Program-made: the position numbers and the translations under genes
Shown: one piece after another, positions 1 to 53,672 of the stretch
Numbering within the stretch: the stretch's first letter is position 1
Layout: each line of letters starts with the position of its first letter
From: Actinobacteria bacterium UBA7524
GTDB taxonomy: Bacteria; Actinomycetota; Coriobacteriia; Anaerosomatales; UBA912
Direction of reading: 5' to 3'
NCBI GenBank assembly: GCA_002478275.1
Contig: DLMY01000020.1
Location: 13,727-77,726 of the forward strand
Length of the DNA stretch: 64,000 nucleotides
Notes under the pieces: generated by a model
What the model saw: only the letters and a program-made list of their open reading frames with translations
Databases searched by the model: none
What the model was told of the DNA's origin: nothing

Positions 1-138
1 GATGCGGTGGTGAGAGCGATCGAGCTTTCCGAGGAGAAGTACTGCGCCGTGAAGGGGATGTTCGGACCGCAGGTCGACATCACCACCACGTTCGAGGTCC
101 TAGAAGCGCCCGCGCCAGGCGCGGCCTTGAACCGCTGA
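1..138 (+). CDS. OsmC/Ohr-family peroxiredoxin-like protein (3' end only; 5' end outside window)
   Basis: Frame +1 is open from the window edge to TGA at 136-138. The tail AIELSEEKYCAVKGMFGPQVDITTTFEV matches the conserved C-terminal Cys region of OsmC-family proteins. Confidence 0.7.
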   Translation, partial: DAVVRAIELSEEKYCAVKGMFGPQVDITTTFEVLEAPAPGAALNR

Positions 139-158
139 CGCGAGAGCGAGACGGTCCA

Positions 159-860
159 GTGGCTGACGTAGTGCTGCTACCGGTCTTCAACGAGGCGCCC
201 ACGGTCACAAGCGTGCTCGATGCGGTGCGCGAACACTTCGATGGAGAGATCATCGTCGTGGACGACGGTTCGACGGACGATACGGCGAGTGTACTGGCAG
301 TGCGGCCTGACGTCACCCTGGTGACACACCCCGTGAACCTGGGATACGGTCGCGCGCTGGCAGAAGGGTTCGCTCTTGCGCGTGCCAGGTCGGCACAGTC
401 GGTCGTGACCATGGACTGCGACGGGCAGCACGAGCCGGCACACATCGAGCGGTTCCTTGAGACGGCGCGCCACGGAGTGGACATAGTGTCGGGTAGCCGC
501 TACCTGCCCGGCAGCCGGGAGATAGGCCTGGCACCTGAGTCTCGGCGGGAGATCAACGCCAGGGTCACGGCCGAGATCAACCGCGTGACCGGGTGGGGAC
601 TGACCGACGCGTTCTGTGGCTTCAAGGCCTATCGTCTGTCTTCGCTTGAACGGATCTCCTTGACCGAACCGGGCTATGCGATGCCGATGGAGTTGTGGGC
701 CAAGGCGTTCAGGAACCGCCTGGAGATCGCGGAACTGCCTGTGGAGCGGATCTACTACGATCATGACCGTTCTTTCGGAGAGGACCTCGACGACCCGGAG
801 ATCCGCTTCACCTACTACATGCGCGTGTGGCAGACCGCGCTCGAGGAGGACTCACCATGA
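159..860 (+). CDS. Family-2 glycosyltransferase (DPM1/GtrB-like, small, no obvious TM segment)
   Basis: 233-aa ORF starting at GTG 159. LLPVFNEAPTV...IIVVDDGSTDDT and TMDCDGQHEP are GT-A/GT2 signatures (DxD-type). Confidence 0.88.
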   Translation: MADVVLLPVFNEAPTVTSVLDAVREHFDGEIIVVDDGSTDDTASVLAVRPDVTLVTHPVNLGYGRALAEGFALARARSAQSVVTMDCDGQHEPAHIERFLETARHGVDIVSGSRYLPGSREIGLAPESRREINARVTAEINRVTGWGLTDAFCGFKAYRLSSLERISLTEPGYAMPMELWAKAFRNRLEIAELPVERIYYDHDRSFGEDLDDPEIRFTYYMRVWQTALEEDSP

Positions 861-1537
861 CACGCATCGTCTGCGTCGGAGCCCATCCCGACGACGTGGA
901 GATCGGTATGGGGGCTACCGTCGCGAAGTTCGCGGCCGAGGGCCACGAGGTCACGCTGATCGACCTGACGGACGGAGAGCCCACGCCGCAGGGCACACAC
1001 GAGACCAGGATGCTGGAGGCGGCCCGTGCGGCGCGATCGCTGGGTGCGATGCGACGTACACTCGATCTGCCCAACCGCTATCTGTTCGACACGGTCGAGG
1101 CGCGTACCACCCTGGCCGAGGTCCTGCGGGAGACCAGGCCGGACGTGGTGTTCGCACCCTATCCGCAAGACGCCCACCCGGATCACATCGCCGCTGCGAG
1201 CATCGTTGACGCGGCGCGGTTCTACGCGAAGTTCACGAAGACTGCCATGCGGGGTGAACCGCACTACCCGACGCGCATCTATCGTTACATGGCGGTCCAT
1301 CTGAGGCTCGTCCGAGAGCCTTCCTTCGTCGTCGACGTGAGCGATCATCTCGACGCGAAGCTCATCGCACTTCGGTGCTATGAGTCCCAGTTCGAGTCGA
1401 ACACCGCGAACGCGGGCATCATCGACATGATGAAAGCGACGGCGGAGATGTGGGGCCGCACAATAGGAACCAGCGCCGGCGAGCCGTTCTTCGCGGCTGA
1501 GCCCGTGGGTCTGCGCACGTTCGACGCACTGCTGTAG
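857..1537 (+). CDS. PIG-L/LmbE-family zinc de-N-acetylase (BshB/MshB-like)
   Basis: ATG 857 overlaps the upstream stop (ATGA). It carries VGAHPDDVEIGMGATVAKF and DAHPDHIAAA (the AHPDD and HxDH motifs of the LmbE family). The longer track ORF (827) would overlap the GT2 gene more deeply. Confidence 0.88.
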   Translation: MTRIVCVGAHPDDVEIGMGATVAKFAAEGHEVTLIDLTDGEPTPQGTHETRMLEAARAARSLGAMRRTLDLPNRYLFDTVEARTTLAEVLRETRPDVVFAPYPQDAHPDHIAAASIVDAARFYAKFTKTAMRGEPHYPTRIYRYMAVHLRLVREPSFVVDVSDHLDAKLIALRCYESQFESNTANAGIIDMMKATAEMWGRTIGTSAGEPFFAAEPVGLRTFDALL

Positions 1538-1547
1538 AGGAGATTCG

Positions 1548-3110
1548 ATGGTACGGACTCGTCCCGCCATTCCTTCGGGTCACGGCGAACTCCTCCTGCG
1601 TCCACCATACGGGTCGTGGACTTCTATCGCCGAGGAGAACATGGCGTTGCTGGCCACCTCCGACATCGAGGTTGCGGGTGTCGCCCTCGGGGCGTTGCGA
1701 CGGCAGGCGCGCCGTGAGGCGGTGACGGAGGCCGTGGCGTACTCCGGGTGCCTGGGGGTACCACTCGCCGAAGCTGAGCCAGAACCGCGGATGCTTGTCG
1801 TTACCGGCCATCAGCCCGAACTGTTCCATCCGGGTGTATGGGCGAAGATGTTCCTGCTCGATCGATTCGCTCGTGAGAACGATGCGGTCGGGATCGACCT
1901 TGTCGTGGACTCGGACTCCTCTCATGACGTCGGGATGAACATCCCATGCCTTTCTCCAGTGGCCCGGCGCTGCAGGGTCTCGCTGACGTCTGGTGGGCCA
2001 GGTGCATGCTATGCATGCGCACCGGTCCCCGATACCGCCTCGATAGAGCGGTTCTGCGAGGAGAGTTCTGCACTTGCCGGCGCTCTGCCCGCACCAGCCG
2101 TCGCACGCCATCTTGCGCGCTTCTGCGAGGAACTGCGGGGTGCCGGGAGCGATGCGTCTGACCTGGGTCAGCTGATGACCGTCACGCGGCGGCGTTTCGA
2201 GGCGGATGCAGGCACGAGTTACCTCGAACTCCCCGTGACCCGTCTTGCCTCCACACACGCTTTTTCGAGCTTCGCGCAACACCTCATGCGGCATGCCGCG
2301 AGATTCCGGACCGTCTACAACGCCGCTCTCGATCACTACCGTACGGTGCACAAGACTCGCTCGCGAGCGCAGCCTGTCCCGGACCTGGCCGAGACCTACG
2401 GGGCGGTCGAGCTGCCGTTCTGGGTGTTGAGCGGCATGAAGCGCAGGACCTTGTGGGTCCGGTCGACGGACGCGAACCTCGAGGTCCTCGCTGACGATGA
2501 GATCGTGGCTCATCTGCCTGCCGCTGGGACGCCGAAAGACCTTGGCGAGCTCGACCTCGCGCCCAAGGCCCTGGCTCTCACGATGTACGCGCGTCTCTTC
2601 TTGAGTGACCTGTTCATACACGGAGTCGGAGGAGGCAGGTACGATCAGGTCACCGATGCAGTCATCAGGTCCTTCTTCGGGATCGAGCCACCCTCGTTCA
2701 CGGTGGCGTCGCTGACTATGTATCTGCCAATCGGCGCGCACATCGTCTCCGCGGAGGAGGTCGCTGAGGCGCGGCGGCGCCTCAGCCGCTTCGAGCACAA
2801 CCCGGACGAGATGTTGCGTGAGGCCGAGTTCGAGTCTGACGTGGAAGCCAGCCGGGCCACGGCCTTGACAGCGGAGAAGGCAGACCTGCGCCGCGCGATA
2901 TCGACTGAAGGTGCGGACAAGAAGTCGCTTGGCACCAGAATCCGGGATGTCAACGAAGAACTGCGTGCGCTTCTTGCCCCTCTTGCTGGGCAGATGCGCA
3001 TCGAACTTGCGGCGCTGGAGGCACAGCATGCTCGAAGTGAGGTGCTGACCGACCGTACTTACCCGTACTGCCTCTGGAGCCCTGAAGAGGTTGCCGACAA
3101 GGTCGGGTGA
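1548..3110 (+). CDS. Hypothetical 520-aa protein with BshC-like motifs (function unproven)
   Basis: ATG 1548 is preceded by GAGGAG. It has VVTGHQPELFHPGVWAK (compare BshC GGQQAGLLTGPLYTIHK) and DLVVDSDSSHD (compare BshC VAGEDHDLDE), plus a charged, heptad-like C-terminal third. Coding status is confident; the functional call is tentative. Confidence 0.55.
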   Translation: MVRTRPAIPSGHGELLLRPPYGSWTSIAEENMALLATSDIEVAGVALGALRRQARREAVTEAVAYSGCLGVPLAEAEPEPRMLVVTGHQPELFHPGVWAKMFLLDRFARENDAVGIDLVVDSDSSHDVGMNIPCLSPVARRCRVSLTSGGPGACYACAPVPDTASIERFCEESSALAGALPAPAVARHLARFCEELRGAGSDASDLGQLMTVTRRRFEADAGTSYLELPVTRLASTHAFSSFAQHLMRHAARFRTVYNAALDHYRTVHKTRSRAQPVPDLAETYGAVELPFWVLSGMKRRTLWVRSTDANLEVLADDEIVAHLPAAGTPKDLGELDLAPKALALTMYARLFLSDLFIHGVGGGRYDQVTDAVIRSFFGIEPPSFTVASLTMYLPIGAHIVSAEEVAEARRRLSRFEHNPDEMLREAEFESDVEASRATALTAEKADLRRAISTEGADKKSLGTRIRDVNEELRALLAPLAGQMRIELAALEAQHARSEVLTDRTYPYCLWSPEEVADKVG

Positions 3111-3204
3111 TCCTGCCGGGGACACAGGTGGCACCGTGTCGCGTGAGGCGTGCTATCATACGGCCACTCTTTGCACCTTACAGTCGCGTGAAAGGACAAG
3201 TTCC

Positions 3205-3381
3205 ATGTCGATCCCCGTCGTTGACTCCGACCTGTGCACCGCATGTGGCATCTGTGTCGATGAGTGCCCCGTATCCTGCTACGACCTTGAGGATGTCGCG
3301 GTGCTGGCACGACCGGACGACTGCACTGAGTGCGGTATCTGCGTCGACGCATGCCCCAGTGGTGCCATCTCCATGCCGTAG
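3205..3381 (+). CDS. 2x[4Fe-4S] ferredoxin (58 aa)
   Basis: ATG 3205 follows AAAGGA. There are two CxxCxxCxxxCP motifs (CTACGICVDECP and CTECGICVDACP). Confidence 0.9.
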   Translation: MSIPVVDSDLCTACGICVDECPVSCYDLEDVAVLARPDDCTECGICVDACPSGAISMP

Positions 3382-3395
3382 AGCCATCTTGGGCC

Positions 3396-3425
3396 GGTCC
3401 ACCGTCCTGTCCGGCACGGTGGACC
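3396..3425. terminator. Bidirectional stem-loop between the convergent ferredoxin and plsY genes
   Basis: GGTCCACCG-12 nt-CGGTGGACC forms a 9-bp perfect stem, placed between the stop codons at 3381 (+) and 3429 (-). There is no clear U-tract. Confidence 0.5.
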
Positions 3426-3428
3426 CGC

Positions 3429-4178
3429 CTAACCCTTCGGGCCCATTCCGTCGTTGATGTAGAACTTCGGCTCGGCTCCCGCGAGTAGCCCCATGAAGCG
3501 TTTGTGGTGTGCAGCGTAGACGACGGCACCCATCAGTAGCGCGAAGGGCCAGTCTGGGGATCCCAGCAAGAGCGCGGTGAGCGGCAGAGTCGCCGCGGCA
3601 GCGACCTGTCCGGCCATCATGTAGCGCGTGATGAAGATGATCGCGAGCCCGACGGCTACGACAGCTACGAAGTAGCGCCAGTCGTAGGCGAGTAGCGCAC
3701 CGCCACCGGTCGCCAACCCTTTGCCCGTACGCGAGAAGCGCTTCTTGATGATCGCCATCCACAAGGAGTAGTTGTGACCGAGTACTGCTCCCGCGACGAC
3801 GATGATGGGGATCGGAGCGCTCGCCATCATTCCCAGGCTGTCCGGGAGTCCCGGTGGAGAGAGCAGCGATAAGACCGCGTCATCTGCGATCTGAGAACCG
3901 TAAGGCAGCTGGATCGCCATGCCGCTGGCAAGAAGCTTGGCGGCTGCAACGGGCAGAATCCCTTTGAGCGCATCGCCGATCATCGCTACCGTGAACCAGC
4001 CCCATGAGCCTGTGGAGCGTCGGACGTTCATGGCGCCGACATTCCCGCTCCCGTGTGTGGTGACGTCCTCTCCGATGATCGCCTTGACGATGATATAGGC
4101 GAACGGTATCGAGCCGATCATATAGGCCGCAGCAGCCCACAGGGCGGGTGAGAGTAGTCGTTCCGTGAACTGGTCCAT
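3429..4178 (-). CDS. plsY: Glycerol-3-phosphate acyltransferase PlsY
   Basis: It has the HGSGNVGAMNV motif and is a multi-TM protein. ATG 4178 is preceded by GAGGAGAG, 7 nt upstream, inside the end of the upstream gene. Confidence 0.88.
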   Translation of the reverse strand: MDQFTERLLSPALWAAAAYMIGSIPFAYIIVKAIIGEDVTTHGSGNVGAMNVRRSTGSWGWFTVAMIGDALKGILPVAAAKLLASGMAIQLPYGSQIADDAVLSLLSPPGLPDSLGMMASAPIPIIVVAGAVLGHNYSLWMAIIKKRFSRTGKGLATGGGALLAYDWRYFVAVVAVGLAIIFITRYMMAGQVAAAATLPLTALLLGSPDWPFALLMGAVVYAAHHKRFMGLLAGAEPKFYINDGMGPKG

Positions 4179-4180
4179 CG

Positions 4181-5083
4181 TCAGGCTCTCCTCGGCACGA
4201 CACACTCGATGGCCCGGGGCAGGATCGAGATGTCGTAGCGGCTCTCAAGCAGGACTTCGCCATCGATCTGCGCCGGGACGGCTGAATCGCATTCGATCAC
4301 GAGCGAGGTGTGGCGGCTCATGTGGACAGGTCGCATCTTCGTGTGCTTGCCGGCGATGACGAACGGCAGTCGGACGAGTGCCTGCGGGAGGGAGAGCGGG
4401 TCGATCATGCACACATCGAACTGGCCGTCGTCGGATACCGCGTCCGGCGTGATGAAGAATCCGCCCCCGTACGTGGGGCCGTTCGTGACGGCCACTATCA
4501 GCGTGTCGTGTACCTCTGGCGGCTGCCCGTCGAAGCTGATGCGCAGCTCGAAGCTGGACAGGTCGTTGAAGAGCACGTGCAGGAGTGCGGTGAGATAGAG
4601 CCACAGCCCGGAGCGTTTCGTCGTGACCTTGTACTCGACGGCCTTGGCGGTGACTTTGGCGTCCAGGCCGGCAGCGAAGCTGTTGTTGAAGTAGATACCG
4701 TTGCAGAGTCCGACGTCGAACCGCTTGCGCACCCCGGTCGCCAGTGCGAGTGCCGCCTCCGTGAGGTCCTCGGGGACACCTAGGGTACGCCTGGTGTCGT
4801 TACCTGAACCGGTGGGCAGAAGGCCGAGGGCGGGCCGGTCATCAGCCGGTCGGCGCATGAGTCCGTTGAGGACTTCATGGACCGTGCCGTCACCGCCCAC
4901 GGCGACGATGAGGTCGTATCCTGCCGCTGATAGCGCGATGTCCGTCGCGTGGCCCATCGCCTGTGTCTCGACGGTGTCATGCGGGATGCTTTGCAGCAGG
5001 CGTTCGATGACGGGTAGCAGTCGAGCTGCTTCACCATGCTTCGCGGCCGGGTTGGTGATGACCAGGGTCCTTGCCGCGTTCAT
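4181..5083 (-). CDS. Diacylglycerol/lipid kinase, YegS/BmrU family
   Basis: LIVAVGGDGTVHEVLNGL and LGLLPTGSGND are DAGK catalytic-domain motifs. The start was chosen at MNAARTLVITNP (ATG 5083, preceded by GAGGGATAGGGG), because the longer track ORF runs through the tRNA-Arg gene. Confidence 0.88.
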   Translation of the reverse strand: MNAARTLVITNPAAKHGEAARLLPVIERLLQSIPHDTVETQAMGHATDIALSAAGYDLIVAVGGDGTVHEVLNGLMRRPADDRPALGLLPTGSGNDTRRTLGVPEDLTEAALALATGVRKRFDVGLCNGIYFNNSFAAGLDAKVTAKAVEYKVTTKRSGLWLYLTALLHVLFNDLSSFELRISFDGQPPEVHDTLIVAVTNGPTYGGGFFITPDAVSDDGQFDVCMIDPLSLPQALVRLPFVIAGKHTKMRPVHMSRHTSLVIECDSAVPAQIDGEVLLESRYDISILPRAIECVVPRRA

Positions 5084-5196
5084 GCGTCCCCTATCCCTCA
5101 TCGATGGCAGTGAGCTGTCGTCTTGCGTGCATTCGGCCAAAGGTCGTGGTCGGCGTCTTGCGGGTATGATACTCTGCGTTGGCGTCAAGCGCACCG

Positions 5197-5272
5197 GCCC
5201 TCTTAGCTCAGTGGATAGAGCGTCTGCCTCCGGAGCAGAAGGCCGCAGGTTCGAATCCTGCAGAGGGCACCA
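5197..5272 (+). tRNA. tRNA-Arg (anticodon CCG), CCA-encoded
   Basis: It folds by hand into a cloverleaf: acceptor GCCCTCT/AGAGGGC, D-arm GCTC/GAGC, anticodon stem TCTGC/GCAGA with loop CTCCGGA, T-arm GCAGG-TTCGAAT-CCTGC, and a terminal ACCA. Confidence 0.93.
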
Positions 5273-5285
5273 TACGCACACAGAG

Positions 5286-5321
5286 AAGGAGGCCGGCCCC
5301 GCGTGGGGGACCGGCCTCCTT
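5286..5321. terminator. Stem-loop between tRNA-Arg and the end of the convergent EF-G gene
   Basis: AAGGAGGCCGG...CCGGCCTCCTT forms a stem of about 11 bp, followed by TTCG on the + strand. Confidence 0.55.
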
Positions 5322-5341
5322 TCGTACGTCGGTGCCACCTG

Positions 5342-8256: not shown

Positions 8257-9641
8257 CGCAAGGCGGACCCGCCGTGGATGACGCTCGTTTCCAGGAAGCG
8301 AAGGCGGCGTACGACGCGGGCGACTATCGCGTCGCCGCGAAGGGCTTCCTTGCCGCTGCGGGACGTGGCACCGACGGCAACGGAGCTGCGTACCACATGG
8401 CCGGCAACGCCCTGATGCGGCTTCGTCGCTACTCTGATGCGGTATCCGTGTACCGACATGCCTTGCGCGACGAACTCTATGAGAAGCGCGCCGCGGCCAG
8501 GGTGAACCTTGCGTCAGCTCTCGTCGCCCAGGCCGAGTATGGTGAAGCGGTGGAGGAGTACCGCGCAGCACTCGAAGACCCTGAGTACGATGCCCATTAC
8601 AGAGCACTCCAAGGGATGGCCGGAGCGCACATGCAGATGGGACACATCGAGGAGGCGGCTACCGCCTACCGGCAGGCAGCACTCGACTCGGGTAATCCCG
8701 ACCCCGGGAAGGCGCTCAACAACCTCGGACTCTGCTTCATGGCGCTTGACCGGCCCGGCGACGCGGTCGAGGCGTACAAGGCGGCGCTTGGCTTCGACAC
8801 GTATTCCGGTCGCGGAAAGGCGCTGGCCAATCTGGGTATCGCGTTTCACGCTCTGGGTTTGGATGCCGAGGCGGTCAAGGCGTTCGAGAAGGCGATTCAG
8901 CTCCACGGACACTCGCTGTCGGGCCAGGCTCTTGAGGCCTTCGACAGGAGCCAGGCGGCGCTCGTCGCACCCACGCCCGAACGTGAGGTCGTGGAGGGCT
9001 GGCAGACCGGAGAGATGCCGCCGGTGATCGAGTCGAGCATGGTCGGAATGTCCGGTTTCGACGACGGAGCCACTGTGGAGTTCGCGGCTATCCCGGGCAG
9101 TGATATCGAGTCTGGCACTCCGGGTACCGGTGCCGTTCTCGAAACGGAGGAGATCGAGGAGTCAGCCTTCTTCACCCGTTCGGACCAGGATATGCGTGAA
9201 GCCGACCGAGAGCTGAGAAGGGCCGAGCGGCTCAGCCGCAGAGAGACGCGCAACCCCTGGCGGACTGTGGTGTCGATCGCGTCGGTCGTGGTCGTGGTGG
9301 CCGGCGCTCTGCTGGCGCTGTACTTCACCGGACTCGGCTTCCCGACGCAGGCGATGACCGTCGATGGCCTGCTTGAGGCACGTGCCGCAGGTAGTGCGGT
9401 CGACAAGTACTGGGTGGCAGTGCCCGATGCTGACGTGGACAAGGAGATGGCGAAGCTGCCTCCTGTCAAGGAGTTCCAACTCGGAGCGATCGAGCGCGCG
9501 GCTCGTACGTCCCGGGTCGAGGTGACTGTGACGCCAGACAACGGAGCTCCATTACGTTATGAGATCACGTTGTCGCGCGAGGGTGTCGGTTGGAAGGTCA
9601 GTGGAGTGGCCAACGACTGGCGAACGCCAGAAGATGACTGA
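8253..9641 (+). CDS. TPR-repeat membrane-anchored protein
   Basis: The GTG start overlaps the upstream stop (GTGA). It has multiple TPR-like repeats (AxxYxxAL... patterns), one TM helix ([20 protein letters not shown]) and a small C-terminal domain. Confidence 0.75.
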
Positions 9642-9771
9642 GTGAGGCGAGCGGGTTTTCGAGGTCCGCAGGAGTAGTCCTATGTGCGATGCATCTCCCT
9701 CACTTAGCCCGGATCGGCCCACTCGTGTACACTTGCCCGGATTGTAAGAGCGAGAATGGCGGCGAAGCGCC

Positions 9772-10194
9772 GTGACGGAAAGGAAGAACGTGGAGCAGAA
9801 GACCTTCATCATGATCAAACCGGACGCTGTGGCCAGGGGCCTCATCGCCCCGATCGTCCAGCGTTTCGAGAACACCGGCCTCACGATCGAACGGCTCGAA
9901 CTCGGAACGGTCACTCCCGAACAGGCCGCCGAGAACTATGCGGAGCACGAGGGCAAGCCCTTCTACCCCGGTCTCATCGAGTACATCACGTCAGGCCCTG
10001 TCGTGAAGATGGTGTTGTCCGGACCTGAGGCCGTGATGGTCTGCCGTAAACTCATGGGTGCGACCAACCCGCGCGATGCCGCGCCTGGAACCATCCGCGG
10101 TGATTTCGGACTGGTCGTGGACGCCAACGTCGTACACGGATCGGACTCGCCGGAGTCCGCACTTCGCGAGATCGAGATCTTCTTCGGGGACTAG
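9772..10194 (+). CDS. ndk: Nucleoside diphosphate kinase
   Basis: It has KTFIMIKPDAVARGLI and NVVHGSDS (active-site His). The start is uncertain: GTG 9772, or GTG 9790 after AAGGAAG. Confidence 0.92.
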   Translation: MTERKNVEQKTFIMIKPDAVARGLIAPIVQRFENTGLTIERLELGTVTPEQAAENYAEHEGKPFYPGLIEYITSGPVVKMVLSGPEAVMVCRKLMGATNPRDAAPGTIRGDFGLVVDANVVHGSDSPESALREIEIFFGD

Positions 10195-42451: not shown

Positions 42452-42527
42452 GGGGCCTTAGCTCAGCTGGGAGAGCGCATGGCTGGCAGCCATGAGGTCA
42501 GGGGTTCGATCCCCCTAGGCTCCACCA
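42452..42527 (+). tRNA. tRNA-Ala (anticodon GGC), CCA-encoded
   Basis: It folds into a cloverleaf: acceptor GGGGCCT/AGGCTCC with the G3:U70 alanine identity pair, anticodon loop CTGGCAG and T-loop TTCGATC. Confidence 0.93.
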
Positions 42528-48057: not shown

Positions 48058-50673
48058 GTGCAGACACCGACACGCCCGTCCATCCCGCTACTGGTCTGGC
48101 TGGTGTGCGCGTTCTGGGCAGGGCTCGTGTTGGCGGAACATGTGTGCTGGACCCTGGGCCCACCGACGGGCCTCCCGGCGTGGTCGGCGCTCATCGGTGT
48201 CGTGGCAGCTGCGATGTGTGTGGCAGGCCTGGTGGTCGTGCGCCTACCGGTCCCGGTCGGCTTCGTCGGTAGGTTCGCGCCGGCGTTTCTTCTCGTCTTG
48301 GCCTTGTCGTGCGGCACTGCATACGGGCTGATGTACTGGGCGCGCATCGCTAACGCTCAAGAACAACTCACGTCGGCCGCTACACAGCAACTCGATGCGG
48401 AGGTGACCGGCGACCCCATAGTGCGCGAGCGAGGCGCCACGGTTCTGGCGAAAGTCGCGCAGGGCCCTTTGCGTGGCCACGTCCTGGGGGTGATGTGGCC
48501 GGCGAGCGCTGCCGTCCCACGCGCGGGCCAGATCGTCTCCGTGAGGGGGGCGGTGATGGCAGATGCCGATCAGCGCGATGTCTGGGCGCGGCGGCGCTTC
48601 CGATCGGGCCAGGTCGGTACGGTGCGCGCGTGGAAGGCGGAGGTTCGCGAGTGGGCTCGAACGCCGGTGGGGCTATGTGGTCCCGTACGTGCGCGCGTGT
48701 CGGACACGCTGCGGGCCATCGCATCCCAGGGTTCCGGCCTGCTCGAAGGCGTTCTCCTCGGTGACAGGACGACACTCAGGGGCGGGACGCTGGAGACCGA
48801 TTTCCGCACGTGCGGGTTGTCTCACATGGTCGCGGTATCGGGGACGCACCTGGCCATCGTCGCGTATCTGCTCGGCGGAGTGCTGGGTGCGGCCGGCGTC
48901 GCCCGCTCCTGGCGTCTGGTCGCGGTGCTGTCGGGTTGCGTGGTGTACGTGTCGCTCACGGGCGCACACACCTCGGCGTTGCGAGCACTTCTGATGGGCG
49001 CGGTCGCGCTTTCCGCATCTCTTTCAGGACGCCGGAAGGACCCGCTGGGTGCGCTGGCTTCCGCCACGTTCCTGCTACTCTTGCTCGCTCCTTCGCAGGC
49101 GTTCGATATCGGTCTGGTGCTGTCCGTCTCGGCTGTCGCGGGTCTCGTGACGTTCGCGCCGCTGGCCACACACTGGATAGCCGCCGCGCTGCCGCGAAGA
49201 GTACATCGCATCGGGTCGGCGATGGGGGTCACACTCGTAGCACAGGCGGCCACACTGCCTGTGACCGTCCCGGCGTTCAATTCGCTGTCGCTTGTCGGCC
49301 CCATCGCCAATGTCGCCACGGCGCCGCTCGTCACACTCGGCCTGGGAGCCGGTCTTGCCGGGGTGGCCATGCTTCACGTATCGAACTGGGCGGGTGTGTG
49401 GGCGCTCAGGCTCGCGTCGATGCCGCTGGACCTGGCCGCTGTGTTGGCAGCTCGGTTGGCGAGCCTCCCGTATGCCGCGATCCCCGTGGGCGGATCGGCC
49501 CTGGTGCTCTCTGCTGCCATCGGGGCGTGCTTGGCGCTGCTCTGGGCTCGCTGGCCCGTGCCTCGCGACCCTCGCGCGGCACGTCGGGTGATCGTGCTCG
49601 CAGTCGTGGCAGCGATCGTGTTGGGCGCGGGACCGCCTCCGTCACGCTCGGCGAGAGTCGTGGTGCTCGACGTCGGCCAGGGAGACGCGATCCTGCTCAA
49701 GGACGGTGGAGCGGCAGCACTCATCGACACCGGGCCCGATCCCGGATTGCTGAGAGAAGCGATGGCGCGTTGCGGCCTGAGGCATCTCGACGCGGTGGTG
49801 ATCACACACGATCATGCAGATCACACAGCTGGACTGCCCGGACTTGTCGGGGTCATCAGGACAGCGCGCGTGTTGGTGCCCGACACTGAAGACCCCGATG
49901 ACTTCGCCGCCGTAGCGGCCTACGCACAAGGGGCAGGCGCGGAGTTCGCGACGCTTACACAAGGTCAGCGCTTCAACGTGGGCGAGATCACGTGCGAGGT
50001 ACTGTGGCCCACGCCCGGATGGCGCGGCGACGATGTGAACGATTCCAGTGTAGTGATTCGCGCTTCTGTGGGAGACACGGCGATCCTGCTGACCGGAGAT
50101 GCCGAGGAAAGCGTGTACGACTCACTGATGGCTGGCGGGCTCCTCCCGCAGACCACTGTGCTCAAAGTCGCACATCACGGGAGCGAGAACGGCATCTCGG
50201 ATGCTGCGCTCGAACGCCTTGCACCGCGAGCGGCCATCATCAGCGTCGGGACGCCGAACGACTACGGCCATCCGTGTGCTCAGACGCTTGAACAACTGAG
50301 GAGCCACGGCATCCGCGCGCTTCGCACCGACAGGTCCGGGGACATCACGATGGACTTCGGGCGAGGTCGCATCGACGTGCGGGAGGCCGGCGACCTGTGC
50401 GACAATGCTGCGCGCGAGCCATTCCCGTCCATGCCACCCACCCTGGAGCGCGCCGCATGCCCGAGGGCCTGCAAGACCTCAAACCTGTCTACCTCATCTA
50501 CGGCGAAGAAGAGGTGCTGCTCGAGCGCGCCCTCACCCGGCTTCGCAAGCGCGTTGAAGAAGCAGGCGGATCCGATTTCGACGTCGATGTCCTTGACGCC
50601 GAGAGCGCGGAGCCCGACGCCGTTGTCGCCTCGGCCAATATGCTCCCGCTCATGTCAGCCAGACGGCTCGTGA
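48058..50673 (+). CDS. comEC: ComEC/Rec2 DNA internalisation channel with MBL domain
   Basis: It has a polytopic competence domain and a metallo-beta-lactamase motif (VITHDHADHTAG, VAHHGS). The reading frame has no stop until 50673, which puts it 217 nt into holA. Confidence 0.85.
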   Translation: MQTPTRPSIPLLVWLVCAFWAGLVLAEHVCWTLGPPTGLPAWSALIGVVAAAMCVAGLVVVRLPVPVGFVGRFAPAFLLVLALSCGTAYGLMYWARIANAQEQLTSAATQQLDAEVTGDPIVRERGATVLAKVAQGPLRGHVLGVMWPASAAVPRAGQIVSVRGAVMADADQRDVWARRRFRSGQVGTVRAWKAEVREWARTPVGLCGPVRARVSDTLRAIASQGSGLLEGVLLGDRTTLRGGTLETDFRTCGLSHMVAVSGTHLAIVAYLLGGVLGAAGVARSWRLVAVLSGCVVYVSLTGAHTSALRALLMGAVALSASLSGRRKDPLGALASATFLLLLLAPSQAFDIGLVLSVSAVAGLVTFAPLATHWIAAALPRRVHRIGSAMGVTLVAQAATLPVTVPAFNSLSLVGPIANVATAPLVTLGLGAGLAGVAMLHVSNWAGVWALRLASMPLDLAAVLAARLASLPYAAIPVGGSALVLSAAIGACLALLWARWPVPRDPRAARRVIVLAVVAAIVLGAGPPPSRSARVVVLDVGQGDAILLKDGGAAALIDTGPDPGLLREAMARCGLRHLDAVVITHDHADHTAGLPGLVGVIRTARVLVPDTEDPDDFAAVAAYAQGAGAEFATLTQGQRFNVGEITCEVLWPTPGWRGDDVNDSSVVIRASVGDTAILLTGDAEESVYDSLMAGGLLPQTTVLKVAHHGSENGISDAALERLAPRAAIISVGTPNDYGHPCAQTLEQLRSHGIRALRTDRSGDITMDFGRGRIDVREAGDLCDNAAREPFPSMPPTLERAACPRACKTSNLSTSSTAKKRCCSSAPSPGFASALKKQADPISTSMSLTPRARSPTPLSPRPICSRSCQPDGS

Positions 50674-51473
50674 TCCTGCGTGGTCTCGACCGCTATCCTG
50701 CCGATCGACTTGAGCCTCTGATCGACTATGCGGGGGACCCCAACCCCACGACCACACTCGTGCTCGTGGCCGCCAAGATCGCGAAGAACATGCGTATCTA
50801 CAAGGCCATCGATGCCCTGGGGGGCGTGGGTCACTACGCCGCGCCCAAGAGGGGGGAGTACCCGCGTATCGTCATCGAGATGTTCGCCGACCGCGGCAAG
50901 ACGATCGGTCGTGACGCCGCCGAGGTGCTTGCCCGGGCCGTCGGTTTCGACACCCAGGCGAAGGACAATCTGCGCCGTCTTGAGATCGAGGTCGAGAAGG
51001 TTCTTGCCTACACTGGCGAGCGCGAGACGCTGTCGCGTCAGGACGTTGAAGAGGTCGTCTCCGAGACAGCACCGACCTCGGTGTTCGAACTCACCGACGC
51101 TATCGGCGCCCGTGACTGCCGAGGAGCCCTGGCGCTGCTGGCACGTCTCATCGATGCGCAGGAGTCCGTTCTCGGGATCCATGCGCTGTCGTTGAGACTC
51201 GTGCGGCAACTCCTGTCCGCTCGCGCCGTCATCGAGCGGCCCGATCATGGCCGGTCGGGTGATACGGTTGCCAAGGTGCTGGGCGTGCAGCCGTGGCTTG
51301 CGACGAAGATCCTCAAGCAGGCAGAGCGCTACTCCACCGCAGAACTCGTGGACGCGCTGCGACTGGCTGCCGATAGTGAGGCACAAATGAAAACGAGCCG
51401 GGATCCCCGGCTCGTTTACGAGCGATGGCTTGTTGCGGTCTGCACCGGCGAGCTCGCCGGACACAAACGCTAG
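50457..51473 (+). CDS. holA: DNA polymerase III delta subunit
   Basis: It has [18 protein letters not shown] and the expected position after comEC. The start is at MPEGLQDL (ATG 50457), with GGAG 8 nt upstream. Confidence 0.85.
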
Positions 51474-51730
51474 GAGGCGCTTACCCGCTTGGCGATACCC
51501 GACTTGCGGTTCGCTGCCTGGTTCTTGTGGATGACACCCTTGGTGGCTGCCTTGTCCAGCAGACGGTTGGCGGCCTGAGCGGCGGCCTTGGCCGTATCGG
51601 CGTCACCTTCGGCGATCGCCGCGTCGACCTTCTTGACGGCCGTCTTGATCTCGGACTTGACGGCCTTGTTGCGAAGGCGTGCCTTCTCGTTGGTGAGCAC
51701 GCGCTTCTTCTGGCTCTTGATATTCGCCAC
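51470..51730 (-). CDS. rpsT: Ribosomal protein bS20
   Basis: It starts [23 protein letters not shown] and has ...AANRKSG... Confidence 0.95.
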
Positions 51731-51869
51731 GTTCTACGGTCCTTCCAGCTGAAGATGTGATACCCGTCGTCGCAGTGGGGTGCGGACGAACCCTGCGATA
51801 CTATCACACGCCACCGGGTGGCGCCATATGCGATGGCGCAATCGTTCCCACCTGCTATGATAGGGCGCT

Positions 51870-53672
51870 ATGAGCGATCCCTCCCACATCCGCAACTTCT
51901 CCATCATCGCGCACATCGATCACGGTAAGTCCACGCTCGCGGACCGCATCCTCGAGCTGACGCATACTGTGGCCGATCGTGACATGAAAGAGCAGGTACT
52001 CGACTCGATGGACATCGAGCGAGAGCGTGGTATCACCATCAAGGCACAGGCCGTGCGCGTCATGTACGAGGCCGATGACGGGCAGACCTATCAGCTCAAC
52101 CTGATCGACACGCCAGGACACGTCGACTTCACCTACGAGGTCTCGCGCTCGCTGCAAGCGTGCGAGGGCGTCTTGCTTGTGGTCGACGCCGCTCAAGGTG
52201 TCGAGGCGCAGACGGTGGCCAACGCCATGATGGCGACGAACGCCGATCTCGAGATCATCCCGGTCATCAACAAGATCGACCTGCCCGCGGCAGATCCGGA
52301 GCGCGTGCGCCACGAGATCGAAGAAGGACTCACCATCCCTGCCGACGATGCCGTGCTTGCCAGCGGCAAGACCGGCGAGGGGGTATGCGAGGCGCTCGAG
52401 GCGGTCGTCAAACGCGTCCCGCCGCCAGTAGGCGATCCCGACGCGCCACTCTCGGCACTCATTTTCGACTCGTATTTCGACACCTATCGCGGTGTGGTCG
52501 CGCTCATCCGTATCGTCGACGGTGAGGTCCGCAAGAACATGAAGATCCGCCTGATGGCCACCGGTGTGGTCACCGACGTCGAGGAGGTCGGAGTCCGCAG
52601 GCCGGCCAACATGCCGGTCGACGCGCTGACGGTCGGCGAGGTCGGCTACCTGGTCACGGGCCTCAAGGACCCCGCGCTCGTCAAAGTCGGCGACACCGTC
52701 ACGCCGGCCAAGCACGGCGCCACCGAGCCGCTTCCCGGGTACCGCGACGTCAAGCCGATGGTATACACCGGCCTCTTCCCGATAGACGGCGACCAGTACC
52801 CGGACCTGCGCGACGCGCTCGACAAGCTCAAACTCAACGACCCGGCGCTCATCTTCGAGCCCGAGAACAGCCACGCGTTGGGGTTCGGGTTTCGGGTGGG
52901 TTTCCTCGGCTTGTTGCATATGGAGGTCGTGAAAGAACGGCTGGAGCGGGAGTTCGACCTCGACCTGTTGGCGACGGCTCCGAGCGTTGCGTATCGCGTG
53001 ACCAGGACCGATGGCGAGGTGCTCGAGATCCACTCGCCGCAAGACATGCCCGATCCCGGCCACATCGACCACGTCGAGGAGCCCTATCTCACCGCCCAGG
53101 TCATCGTGCCGCCTGACTACGTCGGCGCGGTCATGGAGCTTGCCGAGGGGCGCCGTGCGACCTTCAAGAACATGCAGTACCTGTCCAAGACCACCGTGGA
53201 CATGCACTACGAGATCCCGCTTTCCGAGCTGATCATGGACTTCTTCGACCAGCTCAAGAGCCGCACCAAAGGTTACGCGTCTCTCGATTACGAGTTCCTG
53301 GGCTATCGCCGAGGAGACCTCGTCAAGCTTGATATCCTGCTTGCGGGCAAGCCGGTCGACGCGCTGTCGTTCATCGTCCACAAGGACAAGGCGTACGCAC
53401 GCGGTAAGGTGCTGACGGAGAAGCTGCGCGAGATCATTCCTCGGCAGATGTTCGAGGTGCCGATACAGGCGGCCATCGGCGGGCGGATTCTCGCGCGTGA
53501 GACGGTGCGGGCGAAGCGCAAGGACGTGCTCGCGAAGTGTTACGGCGGCGACATCACCCGCAAGCGTAAGCTGCTCGAGAAGCAGAAAAAGGGCAAGAAA
53601 CGCATGAAAAGCGTGGGCAACGTCGAAGTACCACAAGAGGCCTTCATGGCGATTCTCAAAGTCGATGACTAG
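51870..53672 (+). CDS. lepA: Translation elongation factor 4 (LepA)
   Basis: It has [28 protein letters not shown] and NKIDL, plus the LepA-specific C-terminus [22 protein letters not shown]. Confidence 0.96.

Follow-up and report, generated by a model that had tools for sequence, protein, structure and literature searches.

A conserved cassette for a GT2 glycosyltransferase, a BshB1-type deacetylase and a BshC-fold protein: a candidate operon for a bacillithiol-like aminosugar conjugate

A 64,000-nt stretch of contig DLMY01000020.1 from Actinobacteria bacterium UBA7524 (the window, to which all positions refer) begins with a cassette of three genes, which code for a small family-2 glycosyltransferase (GT2), a de-N-acetylase of the PIG-L/LmbE family and a 520-residue protein with the predicted fold of BshC, an enzyme of bacillithiol (BSH) synthesis (Table 1). 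An earlier annotation of this DNA, the original prediction, had described the three genes as tightly packed on one strand, which is what we find. The ATG of the deacetylase gene (857-859) overlaps the TGA stop codon of the GT2 gene (858-860) in a shared ATGA at 857-860, through which, judging by the sequence, translation of the deacetylase is coupled to that of the GT2, and a gap of only 10 nt separates the deacetylase gene from the third gene, which starts with an ATG at 1548. Since their N-termini and lengths match those of homologues, the start codons of all three genes are sound. None of the three proteins contains a hydrophobic or transmembrane segment, and a scan of positions 1-4400 for promoters and terminators found nothing. 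Opposite the third gene runs an antisense open reading frame (ORF) of 571 codons (1419-3134, minus strand) that is longer than the real gene; comparable antisense ORFs cluster across high-GC loci (clusters 2, 4 and 6) and are composition artefacts, not genes.

Table 1. Features at the start of the window, with the evidence for each assignment.
Feature	Position	Strand	Basis
OsmC-family gene, 3' end (last 45 codons and stop)	1..138	+	homology to OsmC C-termini of relatives
GT2 glycosyltransferase, 233 aa, GTG start (cassette gene 1)	159..860	+	Pfam Glycos_transf_2 (PF00535), E 4.7e-27
BshB1-type PIG-L/LmbE zinc de-N-acetylase, 226 aa (cassette gene 2)	857..1537	+	PF02585, E 8.8e-28
Spacer aggagattcg, 10 nt, with Shine-Dalgarno-like AGGAG	1538..1547	+	sequence itself
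BshC-fold protein, 520 aa, putative ligase (cassette gene 3)	1548..3110	+	predicted structure
2x[4Fe-4S] ferredoxin, 58 aa, two CxxCxxCxxxCP motifs	3205..3381	+	Fer4, E 5.4e-15

The cassette is widespread. Two family motifs were searched for in the GTDB species genomes. Of 600 stretches, 574 proved to be relatives, which places the cassette in at least 574 species genomes; 80 loci were kept. These come from Actinomycetota (Coriobacteriia), Ca. Sysuimicrobiota, Armatimonadota, Bacillota, Nitrospinota, Atribacterota and Planctomycetota; the Sysuimicrobiota, Armatimonadota and Bacillota loci are metagenome-assembled genomes (MAGs), and the planctomycete carriers include anammox genera, Novipirellula sp. 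SH528 and Gemmata sp. IIL30. Seventy-five loci extend 1.6 kb or more upstream and so were informative about gene order; these were checked by tblastn. In 70 of them the BshC-like gene is immediately preceded, on the same strand, by a GT2 gene whose product is 41-72% identical to the window protein, and the identities of the two proteins to their window copies co-vary (r = 0.83). The deacetylase gene stands between the two in 31 of the 75 loci, with flanks that are otherwise unrelated, and independent database gene calls place the triad in further lineages too, where the frames again overlap or abut. The conserved unit is the GT2 together with the BshC-fold protein, joined in 31 loci by the deacetylase between them; the expectation that the whole triad would be co-conserved in relatives holds for the pair, across seven phyla, but not universally for the deacetylase. 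Because this order recurs in dozens of unrelated genomes, the arrangement is not due to chance. A Pfam census of the immediate flanks outside Coriobacteriia (111 families in 83 proteins) yielded no family in more than three proteins, and since no other neighbour recurs there, the cassette behaves as an autonomous module.

It is nonetheless conceivable that the genes share no pathway, being neighbours for other reasons, and that the BshC-fold protein is non-catalytic or an unrelated Rossmann-fold protein. Its sequence homology to BshC is marginal, and its gene stands alone in anammox and a few other genomes: three anammox loci (L032, L038 and L061, from Scalindua and Brocadiaceae) and two others (L040 and L069, one each from Atribacterota and Pirellulaceae) have no GT2 or PIG-L gene within 6 kb, which means that the partner genes lie elsewhere or that the protein serves in another context. 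We consider this explanation very unlikely, given the adjacency in almost all informative loci despite variable flanks, the overlapping or abutting reading frames, and some 18 invariant polar and glycine residues of the BshC-like family, which cluster in loop motifs of the kind expected at an active site.

The second enzyme had been taken for an LmbE-family de-N-acetylase, and both its PIG-L match and its score on a curated model bear this out. On TIGR04001, the model for BshB1 (N-acetylglucosamine-malate, or GlcNAc-malate, deacetylase), it reaches 201.6 bits in a full-length alignment, above the cut-off of 182.5, compared to 47.9 bits on the model for MshB of mycothiol (MSH) synthesis (cut-off 224) and 40 bits on that for BshB2. 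The nearest PDB sequences are 2ixd (BC1534 BshB), 6p2t (B. subtilis BshB1) and 1uan (Thermus TT1542). In BC1534, His12, Asp14, Asp15, His110, Asp112 and His113 have zinc-binding or catalytic roles, and Arg109 contacts the docked GlcNAc-malate (PMC4101496). In an alignment of 33 cassette-linked copies (the window protein and 32 others), the corresponding His10, Asp12, Asp13, His107, Asp109 and His110 are invariant, as is Arg51 (BC1534 Arg53). The counterpart of Arg109, however, is Ala106 in every copy (DAHPDH), where the BshB proteins of B. cereus, B. subtilis and Thermus carry arginine (DRHPDH). Because the pocket thus differs at the position presumed to read the aglycone, we regard the cassette deacetylase as a distinct BshB1-like subfamily; annotation pipelines would name it 'BshB1' where no adjacent BshA or BshC is found, a misleading label. 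The protein also matches, below threshold, Glyco_trans_4_4 (E 3.5e-5) and Glyco_transf_4, models for the N-terminal part of GT4 enzymes; these matches reflect a Rossmann-like resemblance and do not point to a hidden BshA. An apparent four-gene set in the planctomycete locus L055, composed of GT2, BshC-like, GNAT and PIG-L genes, was rejected: its PIG-L protein (9110-10165, plus strand; 351 aa), the one such protein near a planctomycete cassette, belongs to a different subfamily, with an NDYHPDH motif, a signal-peptide-like N-terminus and 111 bits on the BshB1 model, below the cut-off. By these sequence features it is probably a deacetylase that is exported and has nothing to do with the cassette enzyme.

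The third protein had been called remotely BshC-like, a description that its predicted structure supports and all sequence models fail to support. Whereas the profile hidden Markov models (HMMs) recognised the other two cassette proteins, searches of Pfam (E up to 10) and NCBIfam (E up to 1), with the BshC models (PF10079) included, gave no match to this one. Ten distant members of its family contain no Pfam domain either, and neither phmmer nor a profile search matched it to a PDB sequence, apart from designed helical bundles that were paired with its coiled coil. The family is large, comprising 3,601 clusters at 50% identity in a full HMMER scan, 1,764 of those below 1e-30; a word-indexed search scored more than 1,000 family proteins, all of them nameless or 'hypothetical'. 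An AlphaFold2 model built from 44 sequences was obtained with high confidence (pLDDT 91.9, pTM 0.85), and in the comparison with crystal structures Foldseek ranked B. subtilis BshC (4wbd) first in the PDB, with E 3.7e-13, a probability of 1.00 and TM-scores of 0.53/0.51 over 547 columns, full length, at 11% identity. The second match was a class I lysyl-tRNA synthetase (1irx, E 4.8e-6), followed by a series of further class I aminoacyl-tRNA synthetases (aaRS). The model consists of a class-I-aaRS-like Rossmann core and a C-terminal coiled coil, with long helices spanning residues 402-500, in agreement with the BshC fold (about 540 aa), in which a Rossmann core of this type with connecting-peptide inserts is joined to a long C-terminal coiled coil. 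From it we conclude that the protein is, as far as a model can tell, a very distant but structurally recognisable BshC relative that forms a family of its own.

Invariant in this family are G87, P90, G96, K100, D121, R265, E288, W292, R349, H358, G359, G361, G362, Y365 and R503. In the model, the first Rossmann helix (95-110) comes after strand 83-88, and H94-P-G96 lies at its N-terminal end, where class I aaRS carry the HIGH motif; a glycine-rich loop (358-363) follows strand 355-358. The family has neither a KMSKS sequence nor a Cys/His zinc site of the kind found in CysRS and MshC, and no invariant cysteine. For comparison with BshC we used a profile of 24 sequences, after its BshC sequence had been checked against 4wbd; all genuine BshC homologues that we collected contain both PF10079 and PF24850. 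With a single BshC sequence, hhalign found no link to the family, and tblastn with BshC detected neither the 520-residue ORF nor a canonical BshC elsewhere in the window. Relaxed to global mode, hhalign yielded a profile alignment with BshC that is co-linear over 432 columns but not statistically significant. In this non-significant alignment, G87/Q89 are paired with BshC G90/Q92 (TGHQPxL vs GGQQAGL), D121/D123 with D134/D136 (VDSD vs EDHD), and F356-I-x-G-x-G-x-x-x-Y365 (FIHGxGGxxYD) with F347-Y356 at the same spacing (FIAGPGExxYW). Within each family the paired residues vary little or not at all, although the residues of the motifs differ between the two families.

For the opening enzyme, a small GT2 resembling DPM1 had been predicted, in place of a GT4 enzyme; Pfam, NCBIfam and PDB matches all agree with this. 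It matches GT2 (GT-A) models only, not Glycos_transf_1 or Glyco_trans_4, and no GT4 family is among the 25 strongest of the 68 families matched in the window. The top NCBIfam model is that of PpgS, the mycobacterial polyprenyl-phospho-GalNAc synthase (NF058614; E 1.3e-33, full length), on which the protein scores 116.3 bits, well below the equivalog cut-off of 370; its planctomycete and Atribacterota orthologues score 89-101 bits. Models for a dolichyl-phosphate hexose transferase, AglJ and ArnC rank next, and the nearest PDB sequences are P. furiosus DPMS (5mlz) and ArnC, with similarity that extends through the acceptor region to approximately residue 188. Among 26 orthologues from all phyla, mean column identity is 54%; the motifs DDGS, DCDxQH (DCDGQH in the window protein), SGSRY and TDxxCGFK are invariant, the C-terminus is acidic and non-hydrophobic, and no hydrophobic segment is found (maximum KD19 1.21 in the window protein and 1.47 across the orthologues). 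In P. furiosus DPMS, the ligands of the dolichyl-phosphate phosphate group include Arg117, Arg131 and Ser135 (PMC5526996). In a profile alignment, the two arginines correspond to the invariant R114 and R129, Ser135 to an invariant N133, and Lys178, a further residue of the DPMS acceptor-phosphate site, to alanine. Because the phosphate-site residues of DPMS are largely kept, the acceptor of the cassette GT2 probably carries an anionic group; going by these residues, polyprenyl phosphate and a small phosphorylated or carboxylated molecule would both be compatible.

The three enzymes probably act in sequence on an N-acetylhexosamine (HexNAc) conjugate. In the first step, the GT2 would move HexNAc, probably GlcNAc from UDP-GlcNAc, with inversion of configuration onto its presumably anionic acceptor. 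The BshB1-type deacetylase, for which family membership is strong, would then strip the N-acetyl group and expose the 2-amino group, and the BshC-fold enzyme would acylate this amine with an activated amino acid, for which its fold and gene linkage suggest cysteine as the most likely candidate. The end product of such a pathway would be a low-molecular-weight thiol other than BSH, which in Planctomycetota may be N-acetylated by a GNAT resembling Eis and AAC(2'), just as MshD acts in MSH synthesis. We tentatively favour this reading of genes 159-3110, as an operon for an aminoacyl-glucosamine conjugate of the BSH/MSH style and probably for a non-bacillithiol thiol, while stopping just short of even confidence in it; a soluble thiol as the product is, taken by itself, a possibility of about the same or slightly lower standing.

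The chief rival to the soluble conjugate is a lipid-linked aminosugar, which we regard as unlikely, though it stays alive because the GT2 keeps most of the phosphate-binding residues of DPMS. In that case the GT2 would work at the membrane periphery as a polyprenyl-phosphate HexNAc synthase comparable to PpgS, GacI or ArnC, the LmbE protein would deacetylate polyprenyl-phosphate-HexNAc on the cytoplasmic face of the membrane, and the freed amine would be re-acylated or aminoacylated by the BshC-fold enzyme, together with the GNAT where planctomycetes have one. Enzymes encoded outside the cassette would then flip the modified sugar and attach it to a polymer of the envelope. Such an assignment would agree with the rank of PpgS as best curated model, with DPMS and ArnC as nearest structures and with the two conserved arginines. 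PpgS itself has no membrane helix, and synthesis of polyprenyl-phosphate-HexNAc followed by deacetylation is an established logic, seen in ArnC/ArnD, Bordetella Lgm and Francisella FlmF2/NaxD. The cassette shares with the systems of M. tuberculosis (PpgS/Rv3779), ArnC/ArnD/ArnT, Bordetella LgmABC and Francisella FlmF2/NaxD/FlmK the pairing of a small DPM1-like GT2 with deacetylation, here predicted, of the N-acyl sugar that it transfers. It departs from them in other respects. A flippase and a GT-C transferase are usually clustered with the known systems, whereas across approximately 70 cassette loci no flippase, GT-C transferase or small membrane partner (GtrA/GacJ-like) is recurrently linked; all three cassette proteins are soluble, the GT2 misses the PpgS cut-off by a wide distance, and DPMS Lys178 is replaced by alanine. 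The deacetylases of those systems are, as far as is known, of NodB or YdjC type and not BshB1-type LmbE proteins, and the cassette deacetylase is closest to BshB1 enzymes, which act on soluble substrates. We know of no lipid-linked system with a BshC-fold enzyme. Finally, the envelopes of the carriers, among them Gram-positive Coriobacteriia, planctomycetes and Atribacterota, differ so widely that it is difficult to imagine one target common to all.

Ordinary bacillithiol synthesis, with the GT2 in place of BshA, a divergent BshC and authentic BSH as the product, would account for the BshB1 equivalog score of the deacetylase and for the fold of the third protein. The plan is indeed the same, namely glycosyl transfer, N-deacetylation by a BshB1-type enzyme with its catalytic residues kept, and a third enzyme acting on the amine that is predicted to have the BshC fold, C-terminal coiled coil included. 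At each step, though, the cassette differs. It starts with a GT-A enzyme of inverting type instead of the retaining GT-B enzyme of family GT4 that provides the alpha-linked glucosamine (GlcN) of BSH; DPM1-like GT2 enzymes invert the anomeric configuration, and with inversion expected here, authentic alpha-linked GlcNAc-malate is excluded as its product. The deacetylase has alanine where the Bacillus and Thermus BshB enzymes have Arg109, and the third protein, invisible to every BshC sequence model, carries H-x-G at the HIGH position, where BshC has T-G-P. Taking the inverting GT2, the Arg109 replacement and the divergent third enzyme as our reasons, we hold that the product is not BSH, and we see hardly any prospect that the ordinary pathway operates here. 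The cassette also forms one tight operon, whereas in Bacillus the bshC gene is separate from bshA and bshB1 (PMC5790435).

Mycothiol synthesis (MshA-D) offers a second comparison, with its glycosyltransferase, LmbE deacetylase, class-I-aaRS-like ligase and GNAT. In planctomycetes, a GNAT gene of approximately 475 codons, the one additional partner that recurs, follows the BshC-like gene on the same strand at a median distance of 62 nt, in 16 loci and an independent gene call (L026, L029, L033, L039, L042, L045, L046, L051, L055, L059, L060, L063, L066, L072, L074, L077 and L084), so that the order of GT2, BshC-like and GNAT genes mirrors the succession of MshC and MshD, and the model of the 520-residue protein resembles class I aaRS. 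Unlike MshC, however, this protein is no CysRS paralogue and has neither an MshC-like sequence nor the zinc-site cysteines; the glycosyltransferase is a GT2 and not a GT4 enzyme, the deacetylase falls far below the MshB cut-off, and the profile of the GNAT is nearest to the Eis family and AAC(2') (aminoglycoside 2'-N-acetyltransferase), not to MshD. A precedent for the pairing of a GT2 with an LmbE protein exists in hopanoid synthesis, where, reportedly in work by Schmerk et al. 2015, the GT2 HpnI adds GlcNAc to bacteriohopanetetrol and the PIG-L-family HpnK then deacetylates it. In contrast to that pathway, which continues with the radical-SAM protein HpnJ and not with a BshC-fold enzyme, no hopanoid genes are linked to the cassette; on its GT2, the HpnB model reaches only E 7e-5, and no HpnI model is among the matches.

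Several observations weigh against a thiol conjugate made by a BshC-like ligase. Every one of the closest characterised relatives of the GT2 uses polyprenyl-phosphate acceptors, and counterparts of the DPMS acceptor-phosphate residues Arg117, Arg131 and Ser135 are present in R114, R129 and N133. By sequence, the 520-residue protein does not belong to the BshC family, because all comparisons fail: the Pfam PF10079 and NCBIfam BshC models do not detect it, hmmsearch --max (filters off) between the two families finds nothing in either direction, and the hhalign comparison of the families gives P = 0.079, a score equalled by 4 of 100 column shuffles. A BshC fold is in itself no proof of cysteine ligation, because the BshC reaction is itself unsolved, never having been reconstituted (PMC5790435). 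Moreover, no reductase, redoxin or S-transferase is consistently linked to the cassette, the linkage of OsmC is restricted to a single syntenic lineage, and in planctomycete loci the deacetylase gene does not adjoin the pair.

The same three steps could also end in a soluble conjugate that is not a thiol, with another amino or carboxylic acid attached, for use as a compatible solute, cofactor, signalling molecule or secondary metabolite. We retain this alternative, at a probability that is low but not negligible, because nothing in the sequence specifies cysteine: the third protein has no zinc site like that of CysRS or MshC and no invariant cysteine, thiol-handling genes are not linked outside Coriobacteriia, and the GNAT of planctomycetes is more like the N-acetyltransferases of aminoglycosides and aminosugars than like MshD. 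On the other hand, the sole characterised protein with this fold and pathway position, following a BshB-type deacetylase, does add cysteine; BshC attaches it to GlcN-malate, which accumulates in mutants. The cassette is also housekeeping-like, single-copy and present in many phyla, which is more in keeping with a core metabolite, for instance a redox buffer, than with a specialised product, and in one lineage the gene of an OsmC peroxidase abuts it.

The cassette is a variant of a known pathway plan that contains an uncharacterised enzyme family. In literature searches we found neither a second family resembling BshC nor a thiol pathway that relies on a GT2 nor a thiol from planctomycetes described, and no publication on the cassette itself. 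For several major phyla, no low-molecular-weight thiol is documented or predicted, as is stated explicitly for Planctomycetes by Hiras et al. (2018). Against this background, a cassette that maps enzyme for enzyme onto the BSH/MSH plan and yet differs at each step provides a concrete gene target for a new redox metabolite. A bolder form of the thiol reading, possible but more doubtful than the reading as such, would have the product be a cysteinyl-hexosamine thiol whose aglycone is beta- or phospho-linked and which planctomycetes N-acetylate, and would give it the role of the cytoplasmic redox buffer that is missing in Planctomycetota (anammox bacteria among them), Nitrospinota, Atribacterota, Ca. 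Sysuimicrobiota and anaerobic Coriobacteriia, with the 520-residue family as a second, more aaRS-like branch of BshC. Were the product a thiol, a recognised gap would be filled and a new route opened into the chemistry of BshC, including the question of how BshC activates cysteine; since the BshC reaction has resisted reconstitution for more than a decade, a divergent family with H-x-G at the nucleotide-binding position is a useful handle on it. Were the aminosugar instead lipid-linked, the cassette would yield an N-acylated aminosugar donor of a new kind, used to modify the envelope. The existence of cultured planctomycete carriers, Novipirellula sp. SH528 and Gemmata sp. IIL30, makes a test feasible.

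The genes on either side of the cassette are present in the window much as the original prediction had described them, although its suggestion that they form part of the unit does not hold. Upstream, an OsmC frame (frame 1) runs in from the window start and stops at 136-138, 20 nt ahead of the GT2 start; its tail of 45 residues shares 56-65% identity (E 1e-14 to 1e-15) with the C-terminal ends of PF02566 OsmC proteins encoded at the same position in loci L001 and L003. Downstream lies the ferredoxin gene, with its Fer4 match and both cluster motifs. OsmC is found upstream only in the 14 Coriobacteriia loci, the ferredoxin is detected downstream only in loci of this class, and ORF clustering shows that OsmC, the ferredoxin, PlsY, a DAG-kinase-like gene and EF-G accompany the cassette only there. 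Because the Coriobacteriia loci are syntenic over their whole length, these neighbours carry no independent information, and we rejected OsmC and the ferredoxin as pathway members.

Other neighbours likewise follow lineage. Genes for a CcmA-like ABC ATPase, CcmC, CcmE and CcmF lie downstream of the cassette in L016-L018, L021, L022, L034, L037 and L043; ccmABCEF was considered as a link to thiols and dismissed, since it occurs only in Sysuimicrobiota/Armatimonadota-like MAGs and is probably a matter of lineage synteny. In Pirellulaceae-type loci (L025, L029, L030, L041, L042, L047, L064, L065, L067, L072, L080 and L083), a Nif3-like (YbgI) gene stands directly upstream of the GT2 gene, mostly with a xylose-isomerase-like TIM-barrel gene further upstream; an apparent second GT2 upstream in Pirellulaceae loci proved to be an artefact of single-linkage clustering, the gene being the Nif3-like one. 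Genes for a PNP_UDP_1 phosphorylase-superfamily protein and a VanZ-like protein come after the triad in two further lineages (L085/L086, 7952-9428; L087, 7791-9978), L087 adding an Indigoidine_A (pseudouridine-5'-phosphate glycosidase-like) gene, and PNP_UDP_1 also appeared twice in the flank census.

In the remainder of the window, the longest ORF of the DAG-kinase-like gene (DAGK_cat/YegS_C; 4181-5338, minus strand) encloses a tRNA-Arg(CCG) at 5197-5272 on the plus strand, for which reason the true start of this gene must lie downstream of the tRNA, giving a protein of about 300 aa as in relatives. Together with a tRNA-Ala(GGC) at 42452-42527 (plus strand), this tRNA-Arg is the sole Rfam/ARAGORN match in the 64 kb. 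Positions 7500-64000 carry housekeeping genes of an anaerobe; among the 25 strongest of the 68 matched families are cyclophilin, Rnf subunits, NiFe hydrogenase, MreB/MreC/PBP2/RodA and LeuRS, as well as HrcA, PhoH, ComEC, RadC and radical-SAM proteins. The cumulative GC skew climbs from position 1 to approximately 50 kb, then flattens and turns slightly negative (approximately 50000-52000), a change that may mark a switch of replication or of coding-strand bias.

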